Source: Actinomycetes bacterium (GTDB taxonomy: Bacteria; Actinomycetota; Acidimicrobiia; Spongiisociales; JAHEDJ01). Taken from it: 64,000 nucleotides of DNA. This document shows, piece after piece, positions 2,719 to 61,655 of the stretch. A program made the position numbers and the translations under genes. The notes beneath the pieces are model-generated. The model ran no database searches, was not told where the DNA came from, and saw nothing but the letters and a program-made list of their open reading frames with translations. Positions within the stretch are counted from its first letter, which is position 1; each line of letters begins with the position of its first letter. The stretch is from the NCBI GenBank assembly GCA_024641245.1, contig JAHEDK010000002.1, forward strand, positions 167,136 through 231,135, in the 5' to 3' direction.

Positions 2719-3357
2719 ATGGTCACGTCTTCCGAGCCCTTCGCTGCTCGCCTGGACATCGACTACCCCGAAACGCTCGACAGGTTCACGACGTTCTTCC
2801 GGCTGATCTGGATCATCCCGATCGGTATCATCCTTTCCCTGCTCACCGCAACCGGCAACGAAACCGTGGCCGAGACCGGCGAACACATCGAACGGACGGG
2901 CCTCGGTATCACCGGAGGGCTCGCTCTCGCAACGATGCTGATGATCGTGTTTCGGATGCGGTACCCACGCTGGTGGTTTGACTTCGCTCGCGAGCTGACC
3001 CGCTTCGGAGCGCGGGTCGCTGCCTATTTCTTCTTGCTCACCGATCAGTACCCCTCGACCGTTGACGAGCAAGCGGTGCACCTCGAGATCGATTACCCCG
3101 ACGCGGAGCGAGACCTCAATCGCTGGCTGCCACTGGTGAAGTGGCTGCTGGCCATCCCCCACTACATCGTGCTCGCCGTACTGGCAGCCATCGGGATGGT
3201 CGTCTGGGTCATTGCCTGGTTCGCCATCCTCTTCACGGGACGCTATCCCCGCCCGCTCTTCGACTATCTGGTGGGCGTCGGCCGATGGGGACTGCGAGTG
3301 GAGGCGTACGCGTTCCTGCTGGTTACCGACGAATATCCGCCGTTCAGCCTCAAATAG
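2719..3357 (+). CDS. DUF4389 domain membrane protein
   Basis: Duplicated motif FFRLIWIIPIGII / LVKWLLAIPHYIVLAVL...GRYPRPLFDY typical of DUF4389; RBS gaggagg upstream. Confidence 0.65.
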   Translation: MVTSSEPFAARLDIDYPETLDRFTTFFRLIWIIPIGIILSLLTATGNETVAETGEHIERTGLGITGGLALATMLMIVFRMRYPRWWFDFARELTRFGARVAAYFFLLTDQYPSTVDEQAVHLEIDYPDAERDLNRWLPLVKWLLAIPHYIVLAVLAAIGMVVWVIAWFAILFTGRYPRPLFDYLVGVGRWGLRVEAYAFLLVTDEYPPFSLK

Positions 3358-4285
3358 GCCGTATCTCGCCCCTGTCGCGCCCGAGGAAGGCCTCAATGGC
3401 TCTGATCATGTGACCGGCATGCGTGAGGGGAGCTTCATGGCGAGCTCCGACCAGTTCCACCACCTCTGGATCGCGCAGCAGCGAGGCCAGTTCGTACTGG
3501 ATTTCGGGAAACATCAATTGATCCTCGGTGTTGATTATCACCAGGGCGGGTTGTTCCAGTTTGCCGATCCATGGGCGTGCATCGAAGCGGTTGACGGCTG
3601 CGCCTGCCAGCCAGTAGAGGTCGGGGTCCCGGTTCTGAAACTGCCAGTAGGCCCAGCGCAAGTGCCTGGGAAGCACCGCCCCGACGTTCGCAAGGTAGGC
3701 GGTTCTCGCCCGGGTGCCTTCGGACCTGCTGAGGCGATCGAAGGCCCTGGCCAGCACGATGACTCCCCCTCCCACGAATCGCTCGGCCGCCGAACGAGCA
3801 GGCCCGGCAGACGTGCCGGCCAGGATCAGCTTGTCGACTCGCTGTGGATGCCGGTGGGCCAGTTCGAGGGCGGCCAGTCCGCCCATCGAGTACCCGGCAA
3901 CGGAGGCCTGGTCGATTCCCAGCGCGGTCATGATGCCGGCCAGATCGTCGGCGAGGTCGGCGATCTCATAACGGGCTCGCAACAGATCCGACTTCCCGGT
4001 GTTCCGGCCGTCCGGCACGATCACCCGGTAGTTCTTGGCGAGCCTGCCGATCAACTTCCACCACACGACGAGACCATGATCCCCCCAGCCGTGGACGAGC
4101 ACCAGCGGCGGAGCTACCGGGTTGCCGGCCTCCCGAACGAAGAACTCATTGTCGCCGACGAACACAGACCGCCCGGGCAGGCGGAGCGGGTGTTCTTGCG
4201 CTTCGGCCGGTTTGAGTTGTGGCTCGGGGCCCAGAAGTCTCCAACCGGCCCACAACAAGATGAGCCGCTTCATCCAGCGCATCAT
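3350..4285 (-). CDS. alpha/beta-fold hydrolase
   Basis: HGWGDHG...GYSMGG nucleophile elbow and catalytic His near the C-terminus; N-terminal signal-like segment. Confidence 0.8.
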
Positions 4286-4731
4286 CGTGGCCCGCCCAGC
4301 GCGTCGCGGGCAAACACGTACTCATCCACAGGCCGGCCTTCAATCAGGTGCTCCTGGATGATCCGTTCCATGACCTCGGTCGTGACCGACCGGTACCAGA
4401 CGCCATCCGGATAGACGACGGCGATGGGTCCTTGCTCACAGATGCGGAAGCAGTCGGCCTTGGTCCTCAGCGCCACGGCCCCCCCGTCGATTCTTCCGAC
4501 CGGGGGCGGTTCGCCCATCGACCCCCGCCACGGGGGAGGCGCACTCGCCAACTCCAGGTCCTTCATGCGCCGCTTCACGTACTCCCATACCCTCGATGAC
4601 TCCTCATACGTCGAGCAGCGCGGCGTCGTCTGTTCTGCGCACAGGAACAAGTGGCGGCGCAAACCGCCGATGGATAGTGCCGAGGCGATCTTCTGCAGCC
4701 GTTCGTCGAGATGAAGCGGTCGGTCACTCAT
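4282..4731 (-). CDS. thioredoxin-like [2Fe-2S] ferredoxin family protein
   Basis: Cys pattern [12 protein letters not shown] ... [20 protein letters not shown] typical of the (2Fe-2S) ferredoxin / NuoE-like fold; overlaps the hydrolase gene by 4 nt. Confidence 0.6.
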
Positions 4732-4859
4732 GAGCCGTTCACGATACCGGGTTGACGGCGGGGCCTCGCCGGGTCTTGATGAAAAGCCGAGCGACTGACG
4801 GAGACGGTCGCGATCCGACCCGGCCGACTGCGCGGCCGATCGGTCTGATCGCAGCCCCT

Positions 4860-5906
4860 TCAGCTCAGGAGGCGGATGCCCGCTCCGGCCACGATTGACC
4901 CGATCACGGCCGCCGCTTCGGTCCGTTCGGCCTCGAGGGCAGCGAGAAGGAAGTCCAGACGATCGGGGTGGACCGAGATCAGCAGACCTCCCGACGTCTG
5001 TGCGTCGGCGAGTACATCTCTGAGTGGTGACCCGACGTCGCCGAAATCCACGTGATCGATCACGGCGGACATATTCCGTATGGACCCACCCGGCAGGATG
5101 CCCTGGGTGGCGAGGTCGAGCACCCCTTCGATCAGTGGAACCGAGGCGGCGTGGACCTCGGCGCCCACTTCCGCCGCCGATACCATCTCATGCAGATGGC
5201 CGAGCAGTCCGAAGCCGGTGACGTCCGTAGCCGCGTTGACCCCGACCGACGTCATGGCTCGGGCGGCCCCTTCATTGAGGGCGGCCATCACTTCGATGGC
5301 CCGCCTCTCCACCCCGGGATCCACACGGCCGTTCTTGATCGCTGTGGCGATGATGCCGGTACCCAGCGGTTTGGTCAGGACGAGTACATCGCCGGGTTGG
5401 GAGCCGGAGTTGGTGACGAGGCGGTCGGGCTCCACGATCCCGGTGATGGCAAAGCCGTACTTCGGTTCCGGATCGTCGATCGAGTGACCACCGACGAGCG
5501 TGCACCCCGCCAGTTCGAGCACAGCCGCGCCGCCGGCGATCACCTCTTCGAGCAAGTCGAAAGGCAGCGTGTCACGGGGCCATCCGACCAGCTGCAGGGC
5601 GGTGAGCGGAGTCCCTCCCATCGCGTACACGTCGGATAGGGCGTTGGCAGCCGCAATACGGCCCCAATCGTAAGGATCATCGACAACCGGGGTGAAGAAG
5701 TCGACCGTCTGGACGAGAGCCGTACCGCCGGGCTCGACGAACACGGCCGCATCGTCACTGGTCTCGAAGCCGACCAGGAGGTCCGGATGACGGGTGACCG
5801 GTGAGTTGCGCAAACGGCGCAGGACCTGCGCCAGCTCGTCAGAACCGAGCTTGCACGCTCAGCCGCTTCCGTGTGAGTACTGGGTCAGACGCGGTTTCAA
5901 GTCCAT
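4860..5906 (-). CDS. selD: selenide, water dikinase SelD; selenoprotein with in-frame UGA (Sec) at codon 16
   Basis: ORF track gives 4860..5813, but the frame continues upstream through a TGA at 5859-5861 (complement) to an ATG at 5904-5906 preceded by GGAGGTG. Read-through translation [29 protein letters not shown] matches the SelD N-terminal LTxYSHGxG(C/U)xCK motif. Confidence 0.85.
5816..5851 (-). promoter_or_regulatory. candidate SECIS hairpins downstream of the selD UGA
   Basis: mRNA stem AGCUCG/CGAGCU (loop GUUCUGA) starts 7 nt after the UGA; a second stem GGCGCA/UGCGCC follows. Confidence 0.35.
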
Positions 5907-6067
5907 CTTGGGCACCTCCTTCCTGGTCGCGAGCTGCTGGTCGCTCGTCAAGATGCCAGTTTGGCACGGCCCGGGAATACGGATGCCGTTTGCCTCTGGT
6001 CCCACTCGCTCGGTCTTGAGAAGCTGATCAGGTCATGTCGCCTTTTTCACGCGCTCGAGGCTCTCTC

Positions 6068-6553
6068 ATGGTGAAGGGAGAGTTGCAGGTGCAGGCAGAT
6101 GACGAGCAAGCCTTCACTCGTTTCGTCAAAGAGACGGAACCGCGGCTCTCCTATGCGCTGGCCGCCGCCTACGGGCCGGAGGTCGGCGCGGATGCAACCG
6201 CGGACGCCCTCACCTATGCGTGGGAGAACTGGGACAAGGTTCGGGTCATGAACAATCCAGCCGGCTATCTCTACCGGGTCGGCCAGAGCCGCTCTCGAAT
6301 CTACAGACGGCCACACCTGCTGTTTCCGGGCGTGGCGCCGTTGGAAATTCACGATGTGGAACCCGGACTACCCGGCGCACTCGAGTCCCTCACCCGCAAC
6401 CAGCGGGTGGCGGTAGTACTACTCAACGCACTCGAATGGACCGAGAACGAGGCCGCCGAGTTCCTCGGGGTCTCCCGTTCGACCGTTCGCACCCATGCAG
6501 AACGTGGAATGAACCGGCTGCGTGCCGCCCTGGAGGTGACCGTCGATGCCTGA
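6068..6553 (+). CDS. RNA polymerase sigma-70 factor, ECF subfamily
   Basis: Region 2 (DDEQAFTRFV...YALAAAYG) and region 4 HTH (AEFLGVSRSTVRTHAERGMNRLR); start placed at internal ATG 6068. Confidence 0.8.
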   Translation: MVKGELQVQADDEQAFTRFVKETEPRLSYALAAAYGPEVGADATADALTYAWENWDKVRVMNNPAGYLYRVGQSRSRIYRRPHLLFPGVAPLEIHDVEPGLPGALESLTRNQRVAVVLLNALEWTENEAAEFLGVSRSTVRTHAERGMNRLRAALEVTVDA

Positions 6554-7433
6554 CGTCGAAGTTCAACTGCGCACGTACTTCGATTCGAACGTCGAACGAA
6601 TCGACGCCGAAGATGTGGTAGCCGGAACTCGAGTCACCAGTCAGCTGAAGCGCTGGGACGTCCGGGCACGACACCCAATCCGGGTCGCTTCCGCATCTGC
6701 CGTGTTGATGACGGCCGCTATCGGCGCAGTCGCCGTCGGAGCCTGGGCGCTCGGGCGAGGGGGAAGCCGGATTGGAGAGGCCGTTACCACCCCCACTGCT
6801 GCACAACCGTTCGACACCATCGTCTGGCCCATATCGCTGATTGCCGCAGGCGTGGCGATTGCCGCGGCCGTTGTACTGATGACGAAGATGAGAAAGGGAA
6901 ACTCCATGGATACTCTGGAACGCCAAACACCCGAGGTGCGCATCGAGCACCTCCGCAAATCGAATCGCGGCCTGATAATCGCGCTGGTCGTGACAGTGCT
7001 GGCCCTGGCCGGCCTGGGCGGCTGGGTATTGTTCGACAAGGTGCTCGACACCGGCATCGAAGCCGACGTCCAGGCGCTGCTGGACGAGTTCCTCGCCAAC
7101 GCCAACGCGGGCGATCTCGAGGCGAACACCGATCTGTTCACATCCAGGGCGGCCTACATCGAGGGAGACGGCACCGTCTACCCGGCGCAGGACATCCCCG
7201 CGCACTGGGCAGACCTCGAAAGCCGCCTCGGGCAGTTCACCGGTGAGCAACTCGGTGATCCGCTGATCATCGAGGATCCCGATGCCAATCGCTACTTCGT
7301 TTCCATGCCGGGACAAGTCGGCTGGGGACGGGATCCCTACTTCAAGCACTTCCTGACGTTCGTCCTCACCGAGGTCGATGGGGAACTGAAGATCATCAGC
7401 CAGATGGTCAGTCCCCTCGACAACTGGCGCTAA
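6546..7433 (+). CDS. putative anti-sigma factor / membrane protein with C-terminal SnoaL-like (NTF2-like) domain
   Basis: Start overlaps the sigma-factor stop (ATGCCTGA); two TM helices; C-terminal ~130 aa resemble DUF4440/SnoaL-like folds. Confidence 0.5.
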   Translation: MPDVEVQLRTYFDSNVERIDAEDVVAGTRVTSQLKRWDVRARHPIRVASASAVLMTAAIGAVAVGAWALGRGGSRIGEAVTTPTAAQPFDTIVWPISLIAAGVAIAAAVVLMTKMRKGNSMDTLERQTPEVRIEHLRKSNRGLIIALVVTVLALAGLGGWVLFDKVLDTGIEADVQALLDEFLANANAGDLEANTDLFTSRAAYIEGDGTVYPAQDIPAHWADLESRLGQFTGEQLGDPLIIEDPDANRYFVSMPGQVGWGRDPYFKHFLTFVLTEVDGELKIISQMVSPLDNWR

Positions 7434-27961: not shown

Positions 27962-29014
27962 TCAGTCGGCGGATGGCAGGCTCGACGACCTGCCCGTGCC
28001 GGTGGCGTGCCGGACGAGGACCATCTCCGCCAGAATCTCCACCGCCGTTTCGCGGGCACCATTGGCTCCGAGGTCGAGTCCGATCGGCCCGTGAATCCTT
28101 TCCAGCGCAGATGGTGGTACTCCAGCCCCGGCTAAACGTTCCAGTCGCTTGGCGTGCGTTTTGCGGCTGCCCATCGCGCCCAGATATCGAACATCTCTGG
28201 CAAGCGCAGCCTGGACCACCGGATCTTCGTACCGGGGATCGTGCGACAGTACAACCACGAAGGTGCGCTCATCAAGGGCCAGCCGGTCCACGACTTCCTC
28301 GGGCCAGGCGGTGATGACTTCCCGAGCATCAGGAAACCGATCTGGAGTTGTGAACGCCGACCGCGGATCGCACACGGTCACGGAGAAACCGGCGCAAGCC
28401 GCCAGCGCACTCAGAGTCTGGCCGATTTCAACGGCACCGAAGATCACCAACCTCGGCGGCGGAGCAACGGGTTCGACGAACACTTCACTTCCGGCCACCG
28501 AGGTGATCGTGGGATGCTCGGTGTCCATCACGAGCCGGACCAAGGGCAGGATCGCCTCCACCACCTCCTCGGAGAGGTCCGTCGCGATCAGACCGAGTTC
28601 GTGATCGAAAATACCCCGCGTTCCTGCGCTCGGCCCGTCGACGACGGAGGCGAGCGACCCGGACCGCTGAGAAGCAACGTATTTCCCGACCTCGTCGATC
28701 CGAAACCGATCTATGAACACATCGATGACGCCGCCACAGGACAACCCGACCTCGAATGCAGCCTCATCCGATATGCCGTAGCCGACGAGCTTGCTTTGGC
28801 CGCTCTCGAGCACCTGCTGAGCATGTAGGAACACGTCGTTCTCGACGCATCCGCCCGAGACGGAGCCCTCCATGTCACCGGCCGACGACACCAGGAATCT
28901 GCTGCCGAGCGGTCGGGGCGCCGGACCCTGAACGCGAACGAGGGTGGCGGCCGCGACGGCCTTCCCTTCGGCCTCCCACCGCCGGGCCACCTCGACGCTC
29001 CGTACGAGGTCCAC
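27962..29014 (-). CDS. XdhC/CoxI family molybdoenzyme maturation protein
   Basis: XdhC_CoxI N-domain (SSAGDMEGSVSGGCVE) and Rossmann-like C-domain; start placed at internal GTG (29014) to avoid a 90-nt overlap with the M15 peptidase gene. Confidence 0.7.
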   Translation of the reverse strand: MDLVRSVEVARRWEAEGKAVAAATLVRVQGPAPRPLGSRFLVSSAGDMEGSVSGGCVENDVFLHAQQVLESGQSKLVGYGISDEAAFEVGLSCGGVIDVFIDRFRIDEVGKYVASQRSGSLASVVDGPSAGTRGIFDHELGLIATDLSEEVVEAILPLVRLVMDTEHPTITSVAGSEVFVEPVAPPPRLVIFGAVEIGQTLSALAACAGFSVTVCDPRSAFTTPDRFPDAREVITAWPEEVVDRLALDERTFVVVLSHDPRYEDPVVQAALARDVRYLGAMGSRKTHAKRLERLAGAGVPPSALERIHGPIGLDLGANGARETAVEILAEMVLVRHATGTGRSSSLPSAD

Positions 29015-29019
29015 CCGGA

Positions 29020-30225
29020 TCAGCCCTCGAGGAGATGATCGGGGACGTGGTTCCACTCGAAATGACCGCCGTCCGTGTAGGTCCAACCGCCACCCCAGGC
29101 AAAACCCCATTTCTGAAAGATGGCGGCGATATCAGGATCCATACCGATCCGGCCCCCATATGGGTTGTCACTCGGATTGATGTCGATGGCTATGCCCCAC
29201 GTGTGGCGGGAGACGGCGCCCCCTTTGTCCCCCCCACGGATCAGGCGCGGGTTGAAGCAACCGCCGGCGATCTGGAAATCCTGCCGATCGATGTGCGCCC
29301 ACAGGCCTTCATTGATGAGCTCATCGATAGCGGAGCGCAGATAGGGGACGACGACACGATGGCAGCGGAACGGCCCGAGTAGCGGGAGGGTGACGTTGAC
29401 GATGTTCTCGTCTTTCCATGTCTGGTCAATCACGACCCGATCGCCGTCGCCGGTGGGTCGGTAGGAGAACTCACCGAACTTCTCTTTGACGAGCACCGTC
29501 GGCATGACCCCGTCTGGGTCGGCCGGATCATCGCGACTTGAAATCCTCAGCCTGATGTCGGGAAGGCGTGTCCAGAGATCGATCACGATTTCGTCCTGAG
29601 CGCGAAATCCCCATACCGCCATCGACGACTTGCGCTCGAATCCAAAGGACGCCGCAACGGCCTCTGAGAAGACGAGTTCGCTCCACCAGACGGCCTCGTC
29701 CGGGGCGATGGCGCCTACGACCAATCGCTGCCTCGAGCCGTCCCATCCGACGAACTCGACATCGTCGCCGACCTGTGCACCGCGCAGATTCGCCGACGTC
29801 TCCCCGAATACGAGGGTGCCCGCGCGCAGCGCGGCGGCGACGTCACCTCCGATCAGCGGCGCAGCACGGCCCGGGTCGACCGCCAGCGAGGACATGGGGA
29901 TGAAGTAGCCGGGATCGGGCTCCTGTACGACAACTCCGGCGCGATAGACGCCGGTGAGCTGAATCGTCCCACGATGGAGCGCAACAGATCGAGCACCGTG
30001 CTCCGCTGCCACGCCGACGACAGCCAGTTCGGCTTCTGTTGACAGTCCCCCCGGCTCAGTTACACCGATCACCGCGGATCCCAGGGTCCCGCTGGCGGCG
30101 ACCGCGGGAGCCAGCGGTAGACCGAGAACCATCGCCAGCACCATGGCCACGGAAATCGTCGCACGTAAGTGGATGCCCACCGGACGGGCGAAAGCAGCCG
30201 CCCCGGCTGAAGTCCCGAGTTTCAC
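29020..30225 (-). CDS. secreted peptidase M15 family protein (VanY / D-Ala-D-Ala carboxypeptidase-like C-terminal domain)
   Basis: Signal/TM at N-terminus; C-terminal HTWGIAIDIN...GGHFEW metal-binding motifs. Confidence 0.7.
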   Translation of the reverse strand: MKLGTSAGAAAFARPVGIHLRATISVAMVLAMVLGLPLAPAVAASGTLGSAVIGVTEPGGLSTEAELAVVGVAAEHGARSVALHRGTIQLTGVYRAGVVVQEPDPGYFIPMSSLAVDPGRAAPLIGGDVAAALRAGTLVFGETSANLRGAQVGDDVEFVGWDGSRQRLVVGAIAPDEAVWWSELVFSEAVAASFGFERKSSMAVWGFRAQDEIVIDLWTRLPDIRLRISSRDDPADPDGVMPTVLVKEKFGEFSYRPTGDGDRVVIDQTWKDENIVNVTLPLLGPFRCHRVVVPYLRSAIDELINEGLWAHIDRQDFQIAGGCFNPRLIRGGDKGGAVSRHTWGIAIDINPSDNPYGGRIGMDPDIAAIFQKWGFAWGGGWTYTDGGHFEWNHVPDHLLEG

Positions 30226-34584: not shown

Positions 34585-35270
34585 TCCAGAAGCTCAGTGC
34601 TTGGTTCGAAGAGCGGATGGGATGGAAGCCGATCTGGACGGCACTGGCGCTCCGCAACATCCCCAAGGTCAACTGGCTGTACACGCTGGGCAGCGCCACG
34701 CTCCTCGTCACAGTGAACCAGATTCTGACCGGCATCCTCCTCACCATCTACTACGTCCCCAGCCCTCAGGATGCCTACAACAGCGTTGCCTTCATAACGA
34801 ACGAGATCACTGCCGGCTGGCTCATCAGAGGGCTGCATCATTGGGGTGCCAGTGCGATGGTCGTCCTGGCCGGACTCCACATGCTGCGGGTGGTCTTCCA
34901 CGGCGCCTATAAGTTCCCCCGCGAAATCACCTGGTTCACCGGACTCGGCCTCCTGGCCGTGACGATGGCCTTCGGATTCACCGGGTACTTGCTGCCGTGG
35001 GATCAGAAGGCTTACTGGGCTACCACGGTGGGTACCCGAATGCTGGAGGTGACACCCGTCATCGGTGATTGGCTGCTCCGGATCGCCCGCGGTGGGGAAG
35101 AGCTGTCGGCCGTGACGCTCACCCGGTTCTACGGAACCCATGTATGGGTGCTCCCGTCGGTGCTCCTGCTACTCCTGGGTATCCACCTCTTTCTGGTCGT
35201 CCGCGTCGGCATCAGCGCACCTCCGACACCCAAGGAGACAGACGAGAAGCCCAAAGTGTGGTTCGAATAA
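34581..35270 (+). CDS. cytochrome b6-like subunit (N-terminal half of cytochrome b), set 1
   Basis: Four TM helices with haem-ligand His pairs (GLHHWGASAMVVLAGLHMLRVVFHG; THVWVLPSVLLLLLGIHLF); ATGA overlap with Rieske gene. Confidence 0.9.
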   Translation: MIQKLSAWFEERMGWKPIWTALALRNIPKVNWLYTLGSATLLVTVNQILTGILLTIYYVPSPQDAYNSVAFITNEITAGWLIRGLHHWGASAMVVLAGLHMLRVVFHGAYKFPREITWFTGLGLLAVTMAFGFTGYLLPWDQKAYWATTVGTRMLEVTPVIGDWLLRIARGGEELSAVTLTRFYGTHVWVLPSVLLLLLGIHLFLVVRVGISAPPTPKETDEKPKVWFE

Positions 35271-37669
35271 TGAAACGCGAAGAACGCTCCAAATACCTCG
35301 AGGAGTACGCAGAGGACAAGAAGAAGGGCATCCCGTTCTTCCCGGACGCCGTGTTCAAGGACGTCCTGGTTGCATTGATCGTGTTGATCATTCTCATCGG
35401 CCTCGCCTACTTCGCAGGCGCCCCGCTCGAAGAACGTGCGAATCCATCCGACAGCGACTACACACCTCGACCGGAGTGGTACTTCCTCTGGCTCTTCCAA
35501 CTGCTCAAGTACTTTCCGGGCAACCTCGAGTTCGTCGGCGTCATCCTCCTGCCTGCCCTCGGATTCGCCATCCTCTTCGCCATGCCGTACCTGGACAGGA
35601 CCAAGCTCCGTCACTTCCGCAACCGCAGTTGGGTGATGGCATCAACCGGCGTCGCCGTGGTAGCCATGGGGTTTCTCACAGTCCAATCCATCAGGGAGAC
35701 CCCGGCGCCGGCCGACGTGAGCGGCACCATCAACGCCGCCGTTCTCTTCACCGAGAATTGCTCCGTATGCCACGGCACATCGATCGATGTCCCGACCGGG
35801 ATAAACCTGCATGAGACGATTGCCGGGGGTCACGAGGGGATGCCGGCCTTCGCAGCCACTCTGTCGACCGATGAAATCGATGCCCTCGCAGGATTCCTGG
35901 TCTCTCCGCAGGGAGGGGCGATATTCACCGCCAACTGCGCGGCATGCCACGATTCGAGTGACCTCGCCGCCGCCACCCCGTTCCAGCTCCAGGACGCCCT
36001 GAATCAAGGCACCGCCTACGCGCCGCATGATGGACTCGACATACCCGACTGGTCCGAGGTCCTCTTCGGCCAGGATCGAACCGCGCTCCTCAACTTCTTG
36101 CTTGCTCCGGACGGCCAGCGCCTCTACACGCTCTACTGCTCCGAATGTCACGGAACCTCGATCAGCTGGGAAGGGGAACGAGACGAACTCGAAGCGCTCA
36201 TCCGCCAGGGCGGCAACCACCTCGAGATGACCCAGTGGAGGGACGTGCTGCCGGAGGACCAGATCACCGAACTCGCTCTGTTCGTCGTCGAACCATCCAC
36301 GGCTCCCGGGGGCGAGCAACTGTTTGCACAGCACTGCTCGAGTTGTCACGGCGTGCGGGTGCCGAGCGCTCCCGACATAGAAACCGCCTACAACATCATC
36401 GCCGACGGTGCAGAGCACCGATCGATGCCTGTCTGGGGCGACGTTCTCACCGAGGAGCAGCTAACCGCACTCACAACCTACACGCTCGAAGCCAGTCGCG
36501 GCACACCGGTCATCGTCGGCCAGCAACTGTTCGGTCAATTGTGCTCGTCGTGCCACGGTGACTTCGGTGAAGGCGGCCCGAACCCCGCCGACCCCATCAG
36601 AATCATCCCTCCGATCAGTACGGCGAGCTATTTGGAGACCCGGGACGACGCCACGTTGCGCGCCATCATCTCAAAGGGTCAGTCGGACCAGGGCATGTCG
36701 CCTTTCCTGGAGAGCGAAGGTGGACCGCTGACCGAGGACGAGGTGAATGCCGTGGTTGCGTTCCTCCGTTCGTGGGAATCGGATCCGCCGGTCGATTTGC
36801 CGCCCGATCTTGCCCGTGGACCCGTCGCGGGTGGAAGCGTGCAGGTGTATGCGGCGTTCTGCGCCCAATGCCACGGAGCAGATGGGGCAGGCGGCCCCGA
36901 TTTGGTCGGTCCTTCCTTGACCTCGGCAGAATTCCAGGATTCCTTCACCGATGAGCAACTGCACGAGGCCATCGACCTCGGCCATGCTGCTACTTCGATG
37001 ATCGCCTGGGGCGAGGTCCTCACCGCCGATCAGATCCAGGGACTCGTCGACCACATCCGCTCGCTGGGCGGACGCGGTACCCTGCAGACGATCGTCTACG
37101 AACGCGACATTGCTCCGATCTTCCAGGCGTCTTGCGCCGGTTGCCACGGGTCGTCGGGGGGTTGGGATGCATCCACCATGGAGTCCGTGATCGGCAGCGG
37201 AAGCAGCGGGCCGGCCGTCGTCGCCGGCGATCCCGACGGGAGTCATCTCGTGCAGCGCCTTCGTGGCGAGGGCAACTTGATGCCCCCGGCCGGAGCGCTG
37301 CCGGACAACCAACTCGATCTGATCGTGCAATGGATTGCCGGGGGAGCAACCGCCGAAGTGACAACAGGCGACGCGCAATCCGGCGGCGGCGACATCGGTG
37401 ATTACACGTGGACGAAGGATGTCCAGCCGATCCTGCAGGCCAGTTGCGCGGCCTGCCACGGATCGTCCGGGGGTTGGTACGCGGGGACGTACAGCTCCAC
37501 GATCAACAGCGGCGACAGCGGTCCGGCCGTCGTCCCTGGGAATGCCGACGACAGTTCGATGATCCAACGACTGCTCGGCAACGGCAACCTGATGCCGCCG
37601 GGAGCTCCGCTTTCGGAAGAACAGATCGCCGTCCTGATCTACTGGGTCAACAGCGGCGCCAAGGAATAG
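35270..37669 (+). CDS. cytochrome b subunit IV (PEWY-containing) fused to an octahaem c-type cytochrome domain
   Basis: N-terminal 150 aa = subunit IV (TPRPEWYFLWLF; 3 TM). Then eight CxxCH motifs (CSVCH, CAACH, CSECH, CSSCH, CSSCH, CAQCH, CAGCH, CAACH); the last two sit in repeated CxxCHGSSGGW...GNLMPP modules. Start overlaps the upstream stop (TAATG). Confidence 0.85.
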   Translation: MKREERSKYLEEYAEDKKKGIPFFPDAVFKDVLVALIVLIILIGLAYFAGAPLEERANPSDSDYTPRPEWYFLWLFQLLKYFPGNLEFVGVILLPALGFAILFAMPYLDRTKLRHFRNRSWVMASTGVAVVAMGFLTVQSIRETPAPADVSGTINAAVLFTENCSVCHGTSIDVPTGINLHETIAGGHEGMPAFAATLSTDEIDALAGFLVSPQGGAIFTANCAACHDSSDLAAATPFQLQDALNQGTAYAPHDGLDIPDWSEVLFGQDRTALLNFLLAPDGQRLYTLYCSECHGTSISWEGERDELEALIRQGGNHLEMTQWRDVLPEDQITELALFVVEPSTAPGGEQLFAQHCSSCHGVRVPSAPDIETAYNIIADGAEHRSMPVWGDVLTEEQLTALTTYTLEASRGTPVIVGQQLFGQLCSSCHGDFGEGGPNPADPIRIIPPISTASYLETRDDATLRAIISKGQSDQGMSPFLESEGGPLTEDEVNAVVAFLRSWESDPPVDLPPDLARGPVAGGSVQVYAAFCAQCHGADGAGGPDLVGPSLTSAEFQDSFTDEQLHEAIDLGHAATSMIAWGEVLTADQIQGLVDHIRSLGGRGTLQTIVYERDIAPIFQASCAGCHGSSGGWDASTMESVIGSGSSGPAVVAGDPDGSHLVQRLRGEGNLMPPAGALPDNQLDLIVQWIAGGATAEVTTGDAQSGGGDIGDYTWTKDVQPILQASCAACHGSSGGWYAGTYSSTINSGDSGPAVVPGNADDSSMIQRLLGNGNLMPPGAPLSEEQIAVLIYWVNSGAKE

Positions 37670-37811: not shown

Positions 37812-39608
37812 ATGGAGAAACTTCACTTCTTCGACGAGAACATCCCCTGTCTCGCCGCCTGTCCGGTCAACACGAATGCCGGCATGTACGTTGCCGCCAT
37901 CGCAGACGGACAGGATGAACTGGCCTATCTAACCGCTCGCCTCCCCAACCCGTTCGCCTCCGTCTGCGGTCGGGTTTGTGCGGCGCCATGCGAGGACGCC
38001 TGTCGGCGCGGCGAAATCGACAAGCCCATCGCCATCCGGGCGCTCAAGCGATTCGTCACCGATCAATTCGGCGTCGAATCCGGCATGGATACCTACCGGC
38101 AGGTCGCCGCCCCTGCTCTCGAGTCGCGATCACAAAGCGTCGGGATTGTCGGAGGGGGCCCGGCCGGCCTGGCCGCCGCCCACGACCTCCGCCGCCTCGG
38201 CTACGGCGTCACGCTGTACGAAGCCACCGGTCAGCTCGGCGGCATGATGCTGCTGGGGATCCCCGAGTACCGCCTTGATCGATCCCTCCTGGCGGCGGAG
38301 ATCAAGGCCATCACCGACCTGGGCGTCGAGGTTCGGTTGAACACGAAACTCGGCGATGGCATCACGCTCGATGACCTCCGCCGGCAGCACGATGCCCTAT
38401 TCGTGGCCATCGGGGCGACCCTCGGACGCGGACTCGACCTCGAAGGCCACGACGCAGACGGGGTGTTGAAGGCGATCGAGTACCTGATCAACGCCAACCA
38501 GGGGTTCGCAACCGACGTCGGTCAGAAGGTGGTCGTAATCGGTGGCGGCGACGTGGCGATGGATGCAGCAAGGACCGCGCTACGAGCTGCAACCTACGAT
38601 GAGATCGCCCGCCGCCATGCCGAATACGACGAAGAGGACGGGCGCTCATCCATGACGGAAGCCCTCGACGTGGCTCGCACGGCTGCCCGGACTGGTGCTC
38701 AGGACATAACCATCATGTCACTCGAGGCCAAACACGAGATGCCGGCGTCGGAGTTCGAGGTCGAAGAGGCCGAGCACGAGGACATCAAGTTTGTCAACCG
38801 GCGCGGTCCCGCCCGGATACTCACCGCCGATGGCAAGGTCACCGGCATCGAGACGATCGGGGTCACGCGCGTTTTCGACGAGAACGGCCGGTTCTCCCCT
38901 GAATTCGACGATGCAGATCGGCTGACGCTGGAGGCAGACACCATCATCATGGCTATCGGCCAGGCGATCGATGTTGAGGCACTGGGAGCGAACGGCCCTG
39001 AGTTGAGTCCTCGCAAGACAATCCAAGTGGGTGAGGACAGCCTGGCGACTTCGCTTCCGATGGTATGGGCCGGCGGCGATGCAGCCAGGGGCCCGCGCAC
39101 TCTCATCGATGCGATCGCAGACGGCCGGATTGCGGCCCGTGAGATCCACGAGGCGTTTGGCGGCAGCTTCGCCGAGCAGGATACCGGAACCATGGTGCAA
39201 CTGGACCAGTTCCACCGTCTCGACGACATCTACGACCGGGTCCCCCGGGTCGCCGTGCCCACGCTGCCGACGGACCGGCGCATCGGTCTGGCAGAAGTCG
39301 AAACAGGGTTCACCGTCGAAGAGGCCAGGTGTGAGGCACAGAGGTGTCTGCGCTGCTTCGCCAACATCCTGCTCGATACCGACATTTGTGTTTTATGCGC
39401 GCTGTGCGCCGACGTCTGCCCGCTCGACCTGATTTCGCTGGTTCCCTCGGAGGACATTCACCCAGACGAGCCGGGTGGCACGGCGTTAATGTTGAACGAG
39501 CAAAGCTGCATCCGTTGCGCGCTGTGTATTGAGCGATGCCCGACAGATGCACTGTCGATGGGACTGTGGACCGGAGTGGGAGTGCCGAAATTGGGAGCAC
39601 CGGTATGA
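37812..39608 (+). CDS. GltD-like FAD/NAD(P)H-dependent oxidoreductase with N-terminal Fe-S domain and C-terminal 2x[4Fe-4S] ferredoxin domain
   Basis: N-terminal Cys cluster (CLAACPV...CGRVCAAPCEDAC), FAD motif GIVGGGPAGLAAA, NAD(P) motif VVVIGGGDVAMDAA, C-terminal CLRCF...CVLCALCADVCP and CIRCALCIERCP. Confidence 0.85.
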   Translation: MEKLHFFDENIPCLAACPVNTNAGMYVAAIADGQDELAYLTARLPNPFASVCGRVCAAPCEDACRRGEIDKPIAIRALKRFVTDQFGVESGMDTYRQVAAPALESRSQSVGIVGGGPAGLAAAHDLRRLGYGVTLYEATGQLGGMMLLGIPEYRLDRSLLAAEIKAITDLGVEVRLNTKLGDGITLDDLRRQHDALFVAIGATLGRGLDLEGHDADGVLKAIEYLINANQGFATDVGQKVVVIGGGDVAMDAARTALRAATYDEIARRHAEYDEEDGRSSMTEALDVARTAARTGAQDITIMSLEAKHEMPASEFEVEEAEHEDIKFVNRRGPARILTADGKVTGIETIGVTRVFDENGRFSPEFDDADRLTLEADTIIMAIGQAIDVEALGANGPELSPRKTIQVGEDSLATSLPMVWAGGDAARGPRTLIDAIADGRIAAREIHEAFGGSFAEQDTGTMVQLDQFHRLDDIYDRVPRVAVPTLPTDRRIGLAEVETGFTVEEARCEAQRCLRCFANILLDTDICVLCALCADVCPLDLISLVPSEDIHPDEPGGTALMLNEQSCIRCALCIERCPTDALSMGLWTGVGVPKLGAPV

Positions 39609-44804: not shown

Positions 44805-46844
44805 ATGAACGCGACCCTCGGGTATCTCTCGATCCTGGCCGCAGTGGTGGGAGCGCTCGGTATCACCGTGCGGGGTTTCATCGCGATGCGTGATCCGGAG
44901 CGGGCGAACAAAGGGTATCTGGGGTTGCCCGTCATACTGTTCGTGTCCGGAGCCGTCGGCGCAATGTTCTTCCTGGAACTCGGGCTTCTCACCGACGACT
45001 TCTCGATCAAGTACATCGCCAACAACTCCTCGACCACCACCCCGTTTCTCTTCAAGGTCGCCTCTGGATGGGCATCGCTGGAGGGATCGATCGTTTTGTG
45101 GGGTCTGGTCCTGGCCGGCTTCACATTCGCCGTATACGCACGGTTCTTCAGAAGCGAAAGCGGCGACCGGCTCGCAGCAGGGGCTCTGGCGATCATGGGG
45201 CTCATCTCTCTTTACTTCTTCGGGCTAATGGCCACAATCTCCGACCCATTCGCTCGCTGCGTGCAAACGTTCAGCGACGGTGTCGGTTGTGTGACCGGCG
45301 AGAACGCGATCCTCGCCAACGTGATCTCCTCCCCGATCGAAGGGCGCGGCGCCAACGCACTGCTCCAGAACCATTGGCTCATGGCCCTGCATCCACCAAC
45401 GCTCTACGTCGGCTATGTCGGGCTCAGCGTCCCCTTTGCGTTTGCCATCTCGGCGCTCCTCCTCAAAACCACCGGGGCGGCCTGGCTGACCCGGACCCGC
45501 AACTGGACGGTGTTCGCCTGGATGTTCCTCACTGCCGGCATTGTTCTCGGTGGGCTCTGGTCGTATGAGGTGCTCGGCTGGGGCGGCTACTGGGCATGGG
45601 ACCCGGTTGAGAACGCCTCCTTCATGCCGTGGCTGGTCGCGACTGCCTTCTTGCACTCGTCTGTCGTGCAGGCGAGGCGCGGGATGCTGCAGTCGTGGAA
45701 CTTCGTCCTCGTCATCACGACCTTCGCGCTCACGATTCTCGGCACCTTCTTGACCCGCTCCGGCGTAATCGTTTCGGTTCACAGCTTCTCGCAGTCCGCC
45801 ATCGGGCCTGCCCTGTTGATCTTCCTGGTGGTCGTGCTGCTGGGATCGCTCGGGCTCTTCGCGTCAAGGGCTCACACCATCGCCTCTTCTCCCCGGCTCG
45901 ATTCACTCAGCAGCCGGGAAGGGGTGTTCTTGTTCAACAACCTTCTGCTCACCGTGTTCGCGTTCATGGTGCTGACAGGGACGCTCTACCCGCTCTTCGT
46001 TGAGGCGTTCTCCGACTCGACGGTGGGCGTCGGTCGTCCGTTCTTCGATCGCATGGCGATCCCGTTGTCCTTCCTGTTGCTGCTGGCGATGGGCATCGGA
46101 CCGGTCTCGCCCTACCGGGCGGCGAGCGCCCGCGTCGTGTGGGAGCGGATTCGCTGGCCCGTCCGGGTTGCCCTCGGCGCCGCCGCGCTGGCCGTCGTGT
46201 TCGGCTATCGGAACTCGTTCCTGCTGCTCGGTGTTCTGGCCGCCGTGTTCGTCATGGGCGTGATCATCCGCAACCTCTACGACGCCGCCCGGACCAGGGC
46301 AGACAAACTCGGTATCGGACGGAGACAGGCCGCCGCCCGGATCATGCGCGGCGACCCGCACTATTGGGGTGGCCAGATCTCCCACCTGGGCGTTGCGATA
46401 CTGGCACTGGGCATCGCCTTCTCAGCCAACCTGTCGGAGACCGCCACGGTGACCATCGACGCCGGAGATACGGTCAACTTCGCCGGCTTCGAGGTGACCT
46501 ACGAACAGGAGTTCAGCCGCCAGGAACCGGGCCGGTTCGTCACCGGAGCAGACATCACGGTGACCCGGGACGGGTCGGTCGTCGGTACGTACCAGCCACG
46601 GCTGAATCAGTACGGCAACACGCGGGAATCGATCGCCACCCCAGAGGTCGACACCATGTTCTCAGGCGACCTGTACCTCTCGCTCCGCAGCATCGATCCT
46701 TCATCCGTGACCCTCGAGGTCTATTGGTTCCCGTTCATCTGGCTCATCTGGGTTGGAGGCTTCCTGGCGGCCGCCGCCGGGGTCTGGGGATTCGCGGTCA
46801 AGAAGCCCGAACGTTCGGTTGCACGGGACGACACGCGTGTCTGA
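44805..46844 (+). CDS. ccmF: cytochrome c-type biogenesis protein CcmF
   Basis: WGGYWAWDPVEN WWD motif; ~15 TM; RBS ggaggaagg. Confidence 0.9.
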   Translation: MNATLGYLSILAAVVGALGITVRGFIAMRDPERANKGYLGLPVILFVSGAVGAMFFLELGLLTDDFSIKYIANNSSTTTPFLFKVASGWASLEGSIVLWGLVLAGFTFAVYARFFRSESGDRLAAGALAIMGLISLYFFGLMATISDPFARCVQTFSDGVGCVTGENAILANVISSPIEGRGANALLQNHWLMALHPPTLYVGYVGLSVPFAFAISALLLKTTGAAWLTRTRNWTVFAWMFLTAGIVLGGLWSYEVLGWGGYWAWDPVENASFMPWLVATAFLHSSVVQARRGMLQSWNFVLVITTFALTILGTFLTRSGVIVSVHSFSQSAIGPALLIFLVVVLLGSLGLFASRAHTIASSPRLDSLSSREGVFLFNNLLLTVFAFMVLTGTLYPLFVEAFSDSTVGVGRPFFDRMAIPLSFLLLLAMGIGPVSPYRAASARVVWERIRWPVRVALGAAALAVVFGYRNSFLLLGVLAAVFVMGVIIRNLYDAARTRADKLGIGRRQAAARIMRGDPHYWGGQISHLGVAILALGIAFSANLSETATVTIDAGDTVNFAGFEVTYEQEFSRQEPGRFVTGADITVTRDGSVVGTYQPRLNQYGNTRESIATPEVDTMFSGDLYLSLRSIDPSSVTLEVYWFPFIWLIWVGGFLAAAAGVWGFAVKKPERSVARDDTRV

Positions 46845-54249: not shown

Positions 54250-55752
54250 TTGACCAAACTCGTCAAGTTTCGAGTAATGGGTGTATTTCGTCAGCGGATC
54301 GTGCTTGCGACCACGCTGAGCGTTTTCTTCGGCGTTCTCACGTTCCTGCCGGCTGCAGCCGGGCCCGGCCAACCCGCGGACGCAGCAGCAAGTTCGATGC
54401 CCCTCACAATCCTTGCGATGGCGCAGGCAGCTGAGTTCCCGGATCCCCACGGCCTCCTCAACGCCAACAGCAACGGGTGTCTCTCCTGCCACGACACACA
54501 CGACGCGCCCGGGCCGGCGTTGCTGGCAACTGCCACCGAAAAGGAAGCCTGCTACCGGTGTCACGATGGGAGCGGTGCCACGGCCAACATCCGGGCAGCA
54601 TTCGGTGAGTCGATACTCGGGGAGAGTACCCAACGTTCATACCATCCCCTCCCCCACGCGCTCGACGGATACTCGGTAACTTGTGGCGACTGCCACACGC
54701 CGCATCAGGCTCGATCCGAGTTCACGAAGCTCCTGCGTATCAACGACGGTTCCGGCGGCTGGGTCTACTCGCCGACCGACACACCGATTGGCAACACCTA
54801 CTGCTACCGGTGCCACGGCACCGATTCTCCATTCCCCGCACCATTCGGCGATCAGACCACGTTCGAGGGAGGCGTACACCAGGTGCTCGGTGGCGATCCT
54901 CCCTCGGGATCGGGCATCCAGTGCGTGAACTGTCACGACGGCCACGGTTCGGCCTACCCGGGCCTCTCGCAACAAGAGGCCACCTGCTTCACCTGCCACA
55001 ACACGGCAACGCCCAACACCAACCCCGATCTGCCCTTCGACACCACCGAACTCGAGTACGCCTTCACGGCCGTAGCCAACGACTACGACGCCACCGACGC
55101 CGACGGCTTGATTCGCATCTACCACCACCCCATCGGCGACGATGAACAAGACGGCGGGAGCCGTCGGGTCGAGTGCGCCTCATGCCACAACGCTCATCGA
55201 GTTGACCGCGACTACTCAGGAACTGGGAGCAAGATTTCGAATCCGGGAGACACCCGGGGGGACGTCGCCATTACGTGGACGGACGGCACGTTCACCCGGG
55301 GCACCATCTCACAGTTTTGCGTTGCGTGTCACCAGGACCCGGCCACGACCGCTCCAATCAACGCCGGCACCTGGGTCCCCTACGACATACGGCTCACCGA
55401 CGACTCAGCCGTCCTCAACGGGAGCGGCGGACCCCACGACACTTTCGACGCAACGTACTATTTCACCAACGAACGGTCTGACCACGGTGCGGGCGCCCAA
55501 CTCGCCTGCACCGCCTGCCACGACCCGCATGGCTCATCGAACGCCTACATGTTGCGCGAGAATGTGATCAGCCCTGGCGGAGCGGGTGTGCCCGCCGGCA
55601 CCGTCGGCCCTCGGGTGACCGGATTCGTCGATGAGGACACCCCAGAACAACAGACAATCCTCTCGGGCTTCTGTGGCAGCTGCCACGGCGATCACCACAC
55701 CCCCAACAGGCTCTGCACACAGTGCCACAATCACGGATCGCCGCGGTTCTGA
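54250..55752 (+). CDS. secreted undecahaem c-type cytochrome
   Basis: Signal peptide; 11 CxxCH motifs (CLSCH, CYRCH, CGDCH, CYRCH, CVNCH, CFTCH, CASCH, CVACH, CTACH, CGSCH, CTQCH). Start may be the ATG at 54277. Confidence 0.85.
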   Translation: MTKLVKFRVMGVFRQRIVLATTLSVFFGVLTFLPAAAGPGQPADAAASSMPLTILAMAQAAEFPDPHGLLNANSNGCLSCHDTHDAPGPALLATATEKEACYRCHDGSGATANIRAAFGESILGESTQRSYHPLPHALDGYSVTCGDCHTPHQARSEFTKLLRINDGSGGWVYSPTDTPIGNTYCYRCHGTDSPFPAPFGDQTTFEGGVHQVLGGDPPSGSGIQCVNCHDGHGSAYPGLSQQEATCFTCHNTATPNTNPDLPFDTTELEYAFTAVANDYDATDADGLIRIYHHPIGDDEQDGGSRRVECASCHNAHRVDRDYSGTGSKISNPGDTRGDVAITWTDGTFTRGTISQFCVACHQDPATTAPINAGTWVPYDIRLTDDSAVLNGSGGPHDTFDATYYFTNERSDHGAGAQLACTACHDPHGSSNAYMLRENVISPGGAGVPAGTVGPRVTGFVDEDTPEQQTILSGFCGSCHGDHHTPNRLCTQCHNHGSPRF

Positions 55753-60488: not shown

Positions 60489-61655
60489 ATGGACAGACCA
60501 CCACCAGGACCGATTGCGCACCAGCCACCGCCGTCTCCAGCGCCGGAATCGGGCAATGCCACCCAGACCACTCGCCGCCTAATGATCGGCATGATCATCG
60601 TGCTGTCACTCGCTGCCATCGGCCTGCTCATCCTCCTCCTGTTGCTCCTTCGATCCGGGGAGGAGCCCCAGTCGCTGGCGATGCCCGACGATTGCCCGCT
60701 CGACATCTCCCGCTCGGTATACGGATACGGAGCGGAGTTGGATCAGTTGCTCAACAAGCCGCTGGCCGTCACATTCGACGGCAGTGAGAACCTCTGGGTC
60801 TCCGATACCGGGAACGGGCGGGTCCTGGCACTCGACACCGATGGGAACCTTCTCAGAATCATCGGCACCGAGGAGGGGGCCGGCCGAATGTTCAGCCCGT
60901 ATGGCCTCGCCTTCGATGAGACCTACCAACGGCTCTACGTTGCCGACTGGACAGCCCGATTCGTGTTCATCTATTCGCCGGACGGGCGGTACATCGAGCG
61001 CATACCCGCAGATGACCAGGATTTGACGATCTTCGGCGAAGCCGGGTTCACGCCGTTCCATGTCGAGGTATGGGGGGCGCAGATAATCGTCTCCAGCAAC
61101 GATGGGCTGTATTTCTTCGACCGGGCGGGGCATGTCACCGACCACTGGGGCCAACGTGGGGCTGAGGCCGGGGAGTTTGCGTTCCCCGATGCCTTCGACA
61201 TCGACCGCACCGCCGGAACGTTCTACGTCGCGGACACTCTCAATCGTCGGGTCGTCGCACTCGATTCCGCAGGCGAAGTCCTGTGGATCTCCGGCCGGCC
61301 AGACCAGGCAGGGGCAATCACCGGGTTCTGGCAGCTCCCGCGGTCTATCACCGTCGGGCAGGACGGAAATGTGTACGTCGTCGACACATTCAGGGCGCAG
61401 GAGAAGTGCTCCGGGATGGGACACGTTGTGGTGCTCGATCCCGGCGGCGAACTCGTCTCCGAATTTGGAGCGGCCGGCAGCCAGGAATGGGCGTTCAGTT
61501 TCCCGGAGAAGCTCGCAATCGGTCCAAACGGTACATTCGGGCTCGCTGACCGAGAAAAGGGTCGCGTGGTGGTGTTCGACGTTGGACAGCTTCCACCGGC
61601 CGACGAGTCCGAGGCGGACAAGTACCTGCAATCGTTCACCCGCTTCGATGATTGA
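60489..61655 (+). CDS. membrane-anchored NHL-repeat (six-bladed beta-propeller) protein
   Basis: Pro-rich N-tail, TM, then repeated NHL-type blades (VSDTGNGRVLALDTDGN, YVADTLNRRVVALDSAGE, YVVDTF...). Confidence 0.75.
   Translation: MDRPPPGPIAHQPPPSPAPESGNATQTTRRLMIGMIIVLSLAAIGLLILLLLLLRSGEEPQSLAMPDDCPLDISRSVYGYGAELDQLLNKPLAVTFDGSENLWVSDTGNGRVLALDTDGNLLRIIGTEEGAGRMFSPYGLAFDETYQRLYVADWTARFVFIYSPDGRYIERIPADDQDLTIFGEAGFTPFHVEVWGAQIIVSSNDGLYFFDRAGHVTDHWGQRGAEAGEFAFPDAFDIDRTAGTFYVADTLNRRVVALDSAGEVLWISGRPDQAGAITGFWQLPRSITVGQDGNVYVVDTFRAQEKCSGMGHVVVLDPGGELVSEFGAAGSQEWAFSFPEKLAIGPNGTFGLADREKGRVVVFDVGQLPPADESEADKYLQSFTRFDD

Follow-up and report, generated by a model that had tools for sequence, protein, structure and literature searches.

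A probable selenocysteine-containing selenophosphate synthetase gene with two conserved hairpins downstream of its in-frame UGA in an Acidimicrobiia-like genome

The frame of a selD gene on the minus strand of the 64,000-nucleotide stretch of DNA analysed here (the window) runs through a TGA triplet close to its 5' end. Does this triplet end a short upstream frame and leave a shortened selD behind it, or is it a selenocysteine (Sec) codon in the active site of selenophosphate synthetase? SelD has been recognised as a selenoprotein since the 1990s, and we take the proteins of Haemophilus influenzae, Aquifex aeolicus (PDB 2yye/2zod family), Clostridia, delta-proteobacteria, Rubrobacter and Actinomarina to be examples of the Sec-containing form. 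Together with FdhA, SelD is the most widespread bacterial selenoprotein (PMC1794560, PMC5029168), a prevalence that Peng et al. 2016 confirmed over 5,200 genomes (PMC5029168). The deep-Sep work likewise finds SelD to be a selenoprotein in many organisms (PMC12013277). The documented range of the two families takes in the Actinobacteria and the Acidimicrobiia. Mariotti et al. 2015 recovered the bSECIS elements of Sec-containing SelD genes by RNAz (PMC4561486), and a 2026 preprint describes Sec-type SelD in Actinomarinales, an order of the Acidimicrobiia (bioRxiv 10.64898/2026.04.03.716425). We have examined the reading frame, the RNA downstream of the TGA, the related loci and the surroundings of the gene.

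Reading frame and predicted product of selD

The first-pass annotation had drawn a full-length selD with an ATG start and an in-frame TGA, and direct reading together with translation confirms all of its coordinates (Table 1). At the start of the gene the minus strand reads GGAAGGAGGTGCCCAAG-ATG. Fifteen sense codons separate this ATG from the TGA, the codons GCG TGC AAG CTC follow in the unchanged frame, and the frame terminates at a TGA stop at 4862-4860. The mechanical ORF list breaks this frame into two pieces: a selD of 317 aa that starts at TTG 5813, and a separate 48-aa ORF upstream that ends at the in-frame TGA. When the UGA is read as a stop, gene callers drop the first 31 codons of selD. 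That ORF prediction had shortened the gene, as was claimed, is thus borne out, and the protein databases carry the same cut for the whole clade. The closest homologues (P0001-P0023 and P0027; 76-98% identity) have 316-320 aa and are cut at or near the TTG point, and a further entry, P0127, is identical to the 317-aa shortened ORF of the window. More distant database homologues (58-63% identity) have a length of about 347 aa.

Table 1. Positions of the selD features and of neighbouring genes in the window; hairpin nucleotides are counted from the U of the in-frame UGA (nt 1).
Feature	Position	Strand	Description
Full-length selD CDS	4860..5906	(-)	348 codons plus stop, predicted Sec at codon 16; by translation
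Shine-Dalgarno AGGAGGTG	5913..5920	(-)	6 nt before ATG; by direct reading
Predicted true start codon ATG	5904..5906	(-)	N-terminus aligns with E. coli SelD N-terminus
In-frame UGA, predicted Sec16	5859..5861	(-)	equivalent of E. coli Cys17
Cys18 and Lys19 codons	5850..5855	(-)	E. coli Cys19 and Lys20, catalytic loop; 3u0o alignment
Internal Leu32 codon TTG	5811..5813	(-)	false start of the mechanical ORF call
Hairpin 1	5833..5851	(-)	AGCUCG / GUUCUGA / CGAGCU; nt 11-29; folding: 6 bp, -8.4 kcal/mol
Hairpin 2	5816..5832	(-)	GGCGCAG / GUC / CUGCGCC; nt 30-46; folding: 7 bp, -11.3 kcal/mol
Alpha/beta hydrolase gene	3350..4285		start overlapped by stop of the 149-aa gene
149-aa protein gene	4282..4731	(-)	downstream of selD
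ECF sigma gene	6035..6553	(+)	upstream of selD, opposite strand
295-aa membrane-protein gene	6546..7433	(+)	overlaps ECF sigma gene
XdhC-family maturation-factor homologue	27962..29110	(-)	183 bits, cut-off 350
GltD-like NAD(P)-binding Fe-S flavoprotein	37812..39608	(+)	sub-threshold similarity to YgfK-type proteins
c-type cytochrome genes and CcmF	35069..37669, 44805..46844, 54250..55752, 61800..62909	(+)	right half of the window
NHL-repeat protein	60489..61655		right half of the window

The product of the full frame is a predicted enzyme, selenophosphate synthetase SelD (selenide,water dikinase). With the stop replaced by Cys for profile scoring, the 348-aa product reaches 405.7 bits against the SelD equivalog TIGR00476 (cut-off 125) and 379.7 bits against PRK00943 / NF002098 (cut-off 299). 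Its two domains, AIRS (PF00586, residues 51-158) and AIRS_C (PF02769, residues 170-345), give full-length coverage. Residues 6-345 align with residues 7-341 of the E. coli SelD structure 3u0o (E = 6e-85), and the Aquifex SelD structure (2yye) is matched as well. In the former alignment the loop SHGSG-U-ACK falls on E. coli SHGAG-C-GCK, so that U16 corresponds to C17 and K19 to K20. Since the stop lies on Cys17 and the following C-K on Cys19-Lys20, the UGA is located within the catalytic glycine-rich loop. The proposal that this gene is SelD with a UGA in the GxG(U/C)xCK loop at Cys17 is well supported by the TIGR00476 score and the 3u0o alignment. In established SelD biochemistry a glycine-rich loop with the equivalents of Cys17 and Lys20 counts as required for catalysis. 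Among the GTDB species representatives scanned, the named genomes with the most similar SelD are MAGs of Acidimicrobiia, at 62-63% identity, and the organism is thus probably an uncultured actinobacterium that belongs to this class or stands next to it.

Related loci and the hairpins downstream of the UGA

We collected 167 related loci, 80 of them from GTDB species representatives, 80 from metagenomes and 7 from exact look-ups. The homologous codon is TGA in 124 of them (Sec-type) and TGC or TGT in 35 (Cys-type); it is unresolved in the remaining 8. TGA carriers are found in the Acidimicrobiia and other Actinomycetota, in Gemmatimonadota, Methylomirabilota, Chloroflexota and Latescibacterota, in Anaeromyxobacter and other delta-proteobacteria (Myxococcota-type) and in Firmicutes such as Desulfosporosinus. 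The Cys-type SelD proteins of Streptomyces, Mycobacterium and Rhodococcus are orthologous (54-56% identity) and have the same catalytic loop, but their genes have a Cys codon where the UGA stands here.

A plausible start upstream of the TGA is common among the Sec-type relatives. A purine-rich motif precedes the in-frame start in 76 of the 99 Sec-type loci scored and was not found in the other 23. In the close and the Acidimicrobiia-type relatives GGAGG or GGAGGTG stands just before an ATG or GTG, 10-17 codons 5' of the TGA. The close clade L082-L088 (81-83% identity) has kept the TGA, with a GGAGG-type ribosome binding site and an ATG or GTG 13-16 codons upstream of it.

The residues that follow the Sec codon in the TGA loci are ACK (98), ASK (15), GCK (10) and AAK (1), and the Lys of the Cys-Lys pair is invariant in Sec-type relatives. 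In the C-A-G-U-A-S-K variant Ser takes the place of the second Cys and a Cys stands three residues before Sec, while the G-U-G-C-K variant occurs in Firmicutes (loop-variant loci L025-L027, L030, L031, L041, L050, L054, L075; L008, L010, L021, L038, L078). The peptide D/E-L-A-Q-V-L-R, encoded at hairpin 2, follows downstream in nearly all variant loci examined.

Two hairpins had been reported within 40 nt downstream of the UGA. Both are present (Table 1), but they extend to 43 nt past the codon. The fold z-score of the single sequence against shuffles is modest, at about -1.9. Despite this, the pattern goes beyond chance, since the TGA is found again in 124 independent loci and hairpin 2 in 108, each time at an unchanged position without gaps.

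The 69 nt around the codon align without gaps in 38 Sec-type sequences (A1) and in 22 Cys-type sequences (A2). In A1 the two-hairpin structure pairs 87% of the cells, compared with just 28-43% when the register is slid. Nine of its 14 pairs are changed on both sides, and the observed covariation was reached by none of 500 shuffles. In the Cys-type alignment the same structure is paired to 61%, and hairpin 2 to only 53%. Counted over unique sequences, hairpin 2 is formed with at least 6 of 7 pairs in 79 of 91 Sec-type and in 3 of 33 Cys-type genes; over all loci the figures are 108 of 124 and 3 of 35, so that hairpin 2 is missing from nearly all actinomycete Cys-type genes. For hairpin 1 the corresponding numbers (at least 6 of 7 pairs, unique sequences) are 65 of 91 and 7 of 33. 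Median folding energies of hairpins 1 and 2 are -7.2 and -9.6 kcal/mol in Sec-type genes, compared with -2.1 and -2.1 kcal/mol in Cys-type genes.

The hairpin 1 pair 22-30 is seen as GC, CG, AU and GU. The hairpin 2 pair 39-49 occurs as GC (64), CG (9), UA (6) and AU (2); here the third base of an Ala codon (GCG, GCC, GCU, GCA) changes together with the first base of an Arg, Gly, Ser or Cys codon. Since this Ala third base is synonymous, its covariation points to a constraint on the RNA and not on the protein. Conservation of the peptide A-Q-V-L-R amounts to 70-97% in Sec-type genes, compared with only 27-51% in Cys-type genes. Hairpin 1 discriminates less well between the two types, being 70% paired in Cys-type genes; its pairing (A-U, G-C, U-A, C-G) stems in part from the K-L...E-L codons that are common to Cys-type genes. 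RNAalifold alone returned just 5 pairs of hairpin 2, and hairpin 1 was only seen in an explicit pair count. The loop of hairpin 2 lies at nt 37-39; in the bSECISearch consensus the distance from UGA to apical loop is reportedly 16-37 nt. Searches against Rfam gave no SECIS match (RF00031, RF01988-RF01990 and others) in the whole window at the gathering threshold, and the segment 5760-5930 returned at E <= 10 two chance-level matches to unrelated families (E > 3). Rfam is reported to cover bacterial SECIS elements poorly (bioRxiv 10.64898/2026.04.03.716425), so that nothing can be concluded from this null result. The suggestion that the hairpins are plausible SECIS elements is strengthened by these comparisons, as they are specific to Sec-type genes and contain covarying pairs.

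The model SECIS for comparison is that of E. coli fdhF, read here from NC_000913.3; the UGA of this gene stands at codon 140, and its minihelix for SelB binding, GGUUGCAGGUCUGCACC, covers nt 15-31. This minihelix and hairpin 2 of the window, GGCGCAGGUCCUGCGCC, have the core GCAGGUC..CUGC in common. Both are G+C-rich hairpins of 17 nt that lie within the coding region, on the 3' side of the UGA, and in both the loop starts with G-U. The GGUC-type loop of the fdhF SECIS (G23/U24) is found in the window as well (GCAGGUCCUGC, compared with GCAGGUCUGC in fdhF), and the hairpin 2 loop starts with G-U in 122 of the 124 Sec-type loci. There are also distinct differences. Hairpin 2 begins at nt 30, after a 26-nt spacer, while the fdhF minihelix begins at nt 15 after 11 nt, a shift of 15 nt. 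The stem in the window is a perfect 7-bp helix without a bulge, whereas the fdhF stem has a bulged U. The loop of hairpin 2 has 3 nt in the minimum free energy fold and 5 nt if the closing G-C pair opens. Unlike in E. coli fdhF, the spacer is filled by a conserved 19-nt hairpin. Since hairpin 2 shares the fdhF core and the G-U of the loop, it is likely the SelB-binding minihelix of a bacterial SECIS, as predicted from sequence and pairing. Hairpin 1, which fills the extra distance, likely serves as a spacer or as the lower element of the SECIS.

What can be seen in the data is a conserved architecture, a minihelix fixed at nt 30-46 with a 19-nt hairpin in the gap. A more far-reaching idea would be that the SelD signal constitutes a distinct, phylum-spanning bipartite SECIS that is functionally unlike fdhF-type elements. 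We regard this as unlikely. If it were true, folding of hairpin 1 or its unwinding by the ribosome might set the effective distance of the minihelix to the UGA, and SelD synthesis could answer to selenium or SelB supply differently from genes with fdhF-type elements.

Reading of the UGA codon

We consider it highly probable that the locus encodes a Sec-containing SelD and that the UGA is a genuine Sec codon. Translation would start at ATG 5906, and Sec would be inserted at the UGA, where E. coli SelD has Cys17. The two-hairpin element inside the coding sequence would act as the recoding signal. SelB would bind hairpin 2 (nt 30-46) much like the minihelix of E. coli fdhF, with hairpin 1 (nt 11-29) occupying the space between the UGA and hairpin 2.

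That Sec, and not another residue, is inserted at the UGA is what we infer from the RNA signal and from the homologues. Reading through the UGA without Sec, by a near-cognate Trp or Cys tRNA or by a suppressor tRNA, in a genome devoid of Sec machinery and with the hairpins as a generic stimulator, seems to us very unlikely, although it fares best among the alternatives. The Sec machinery was not seen in the window, and a mechanism of this type has been proposed for the hairpin-stimulated UGA in Hymenoptera SPS1 genes (PMC4561486). However, hairpin 2 has the GGUC-type SelB loop of fdhF, with its G-U kept throughout nearly all Sec-type loci. The UGA site alternates with Cys alone among the resolved homologues, which is the classic Sec/Cys signature. 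Furthermore, no bacterial precedent for such read-through is found in PMC1794560, PMC4561486, PMC5029168 and PMC9312934.

We give even less weight to the reading of the TGA as a real stop, with a 15-residue leader followed by a SelD shortened from TTG 5813, or with selD as a pseudogene. ORF calling and all database entries of the clade, which give 316-319 aa, speak for it, as does the fact that Sec machinery was not found in the examined parts of the window. The shortened product would, however, be devoid of the loop with the equivalents of Cys17 and Lys20, and no Shine-Dalgarno sequence was found before TTG 5813 when the upstream sequence was read directly. The supposed leader is a homologue of the N-terminal end of SelD, and its evolution is that of a coding sequence. 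In 91 unique Sec-type sequences the ten codons that precede the TGA have majority-base frequencies of 0.81 at codon position 1, 0.90 at position 2 and 0.53 at position 3; of the codon differences from the window, 431 are synonymous and 234 non-synonymous. The fixed positions of the motif R-L-T-x-x-S-H-G-x-G are conserved to 92-100% in Sec-type genes, as in Cys-type genes. Variation at third positions combined with a conserved motif indicates that the upstream piece is translated; this pattern is the signature of a translated N-terminus, and neither of a leader nor of an untranslated region. Whether a separate small ORF precedes selD had been named as a check on the first annotation, and the coding-type constraint over the upstream codons speaks for an upstream frame that belongs to selD. 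Finally, independent nonsense mutations cannot explain why 124 loci over several phyla have the same TGA.

The chance that the TGA is a TGC or TGT, Cys codons one base away from it, misread in sequencing or assembly is negligible, as the codon is repeated in L081, which comes from a separate assembly and is identical downstream, in L082-L087, six contigs of an 83%-identical relative, and in over 100 further assemblies, and as hairpins specific to Sec-type genes co-occur with it. On these grounds the readings as a small separate ORF, as a pseudogene and as a sequencing error were rejected.

Read as a Sec-containing SelD, the gene shows no difference of substance from the bacterial Sec-containing SelD proteins described before: it belongs to the same family and has the UGA at the same position (GxG-U-xCK, the Cys17 equivalent). 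These genes likewise have the SECIS in the coding sequence just 3' of the UGA, and they likewise show the Sec/Cys alternation and the shortening by gene callers (PMC1794560, PMC4561486). Since Sec-type SelD is documented in the literature, the finding is a known feature correctly recognised in a new sequence, ordinary and already known, and a Sec-type selD at this locus adds nothing new to selenium biology. Its main value lies in the annotation fix: the 316-319 aa proteins of the clade are without the catalytic loop, and the true product would be one of 348 aa with Sec16.

Selenocysteine machinery and neighbouring genes

A Sec codon requires a decoding apparatus, and the 64-kb window was searched for it. 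ARAGORN detected no tRNA of any kind in it, and hence no tRNA-Sec. Of the roughly 59 candidate ORFs of the window about 39, including all that are big enough for SelA or SelB, were scanned with NCBIfam and Pfam, and no SelA, SelB, SelU/YbbB, YqeB/YqeC or FdhA was found among them. As the examined parts of the window gave no Sec machinery, its presence is something we infer: it is reasonable to place selA, selB and tRNA-Sec elsewhere in the genome. The organism is very likely a selenocysteine user, and other TGA-interrupted genes of its genome therefore merit re-examination.

The first-pass annotation had also suggested that Se-dependent formate dehydrogenases or reductases could occur in this context. 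This suggestion found no support in the window. Two scans for TGA-interrupted frames revealed no second credible in-frame TGA within the 64 kb, and selD alone survived; the other matches of the first scan were rejected as antisense shadows or ordinary gene ends. Evidence for a selenium-cofactor trait was likewise not obtained, as two window genes considered for it stay below the selenium-family cut-offs. One codes for an XdhC-family maturation-factor homologue, and no YqeB match accompanies it. The other is the GltD-like flavoprotein (Table 1).

The position of tRNA-Sec relative to selD was compared over the fetched loci. ARAGORN found a tRNA-Sec (anticodon UCA) within 10 kb of selD in 20 of the 167 loci, every one of them Cys-type (L014, L044, L051, L056, L059-L061, L064, L066, L067, L071-L074, L076, L079, L094, L151, L153 and L166), so that tRNA-Sec is often a close neighbour of Cys-type genes. 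No tRNA-Sec was found in the fetched flanks of the 124 Sec-type loci, which extend up to 10 kb, many contigs being shorter. The Sec-type selD thus seems to sit outside a sel gene cluster, in a comparison where the Cys-type set is dominated by actinomycetes and is phylogenetically non-independent.

Around selD the window and the 83%-identical relatives have the same genes in the same order: GlnE, NadE, a class-IV aminotransferase, a GGDEF regulator, MgtE, EamA, selD, a 149-aa protein and an alpha/beta hydrolase. Two differences were observed. An ECF sigma gene and the membrane-protein gene that overlaps it are inserted upstream of selD in the window and are missing in the relatives L082-L087; the membrane-protein gene has no family match and might code for an anti-sigma factor. 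A 393-aa MFS transporter that lies between selD and the 149-aa gene in L082-L087 is not present in the window (4732-4859). The 149-aa protein itself occupies the same position as the 149-aa gene in the close clade. It contains C-x8-C and C-x3-C motifs and matches thioredoxin-like [2Fe-2S] ferredoxins weakly (NF041612, 51 bits, below cut-off).

Further ORFs identified in the window code for MgtE, a GGDEF/HD response regulator, NAD synthase, GlnE, an amidohydrolase, DAHP synthase, prephenate dehydrogenase, RlmD, the XdhC-like factor, the GltD-like flavoprotein, CcmF and several multihaem cytochromes. The cytochromes include a protein of 866 aa with multiple cytochrome c domains, one of 500 aa with a doubled CXXCH, and a DmsE-like decahaem-type protein. 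Together with the haem lyase CcmF, they give this region the look of a module for electron transfer in the periplasm or outside the cell, in a genome of Acidimicrobiia type; an NHL-repeat protein is encoded in the same half of the window.

A last observation concerns the Logan contig SRR12825369_226823 (L081, 1848 nt), compared with window positions 4470-6310. It is 100% identical to the window from about TTG 5813 downstream, and 5' of the SECIS/TGA region it is unrelated, with 20-30% ungapped identity. There it codes for a different SelD N-terminus (VAVKLTEFSHGSG-U-ACKLGPDEL) that resembles L089. The breakpoint falls within the SECIS that is conserved across species, so that L081 may be a chimera of the assembly or may have arisen by recombination at this conserved element of the RNA.
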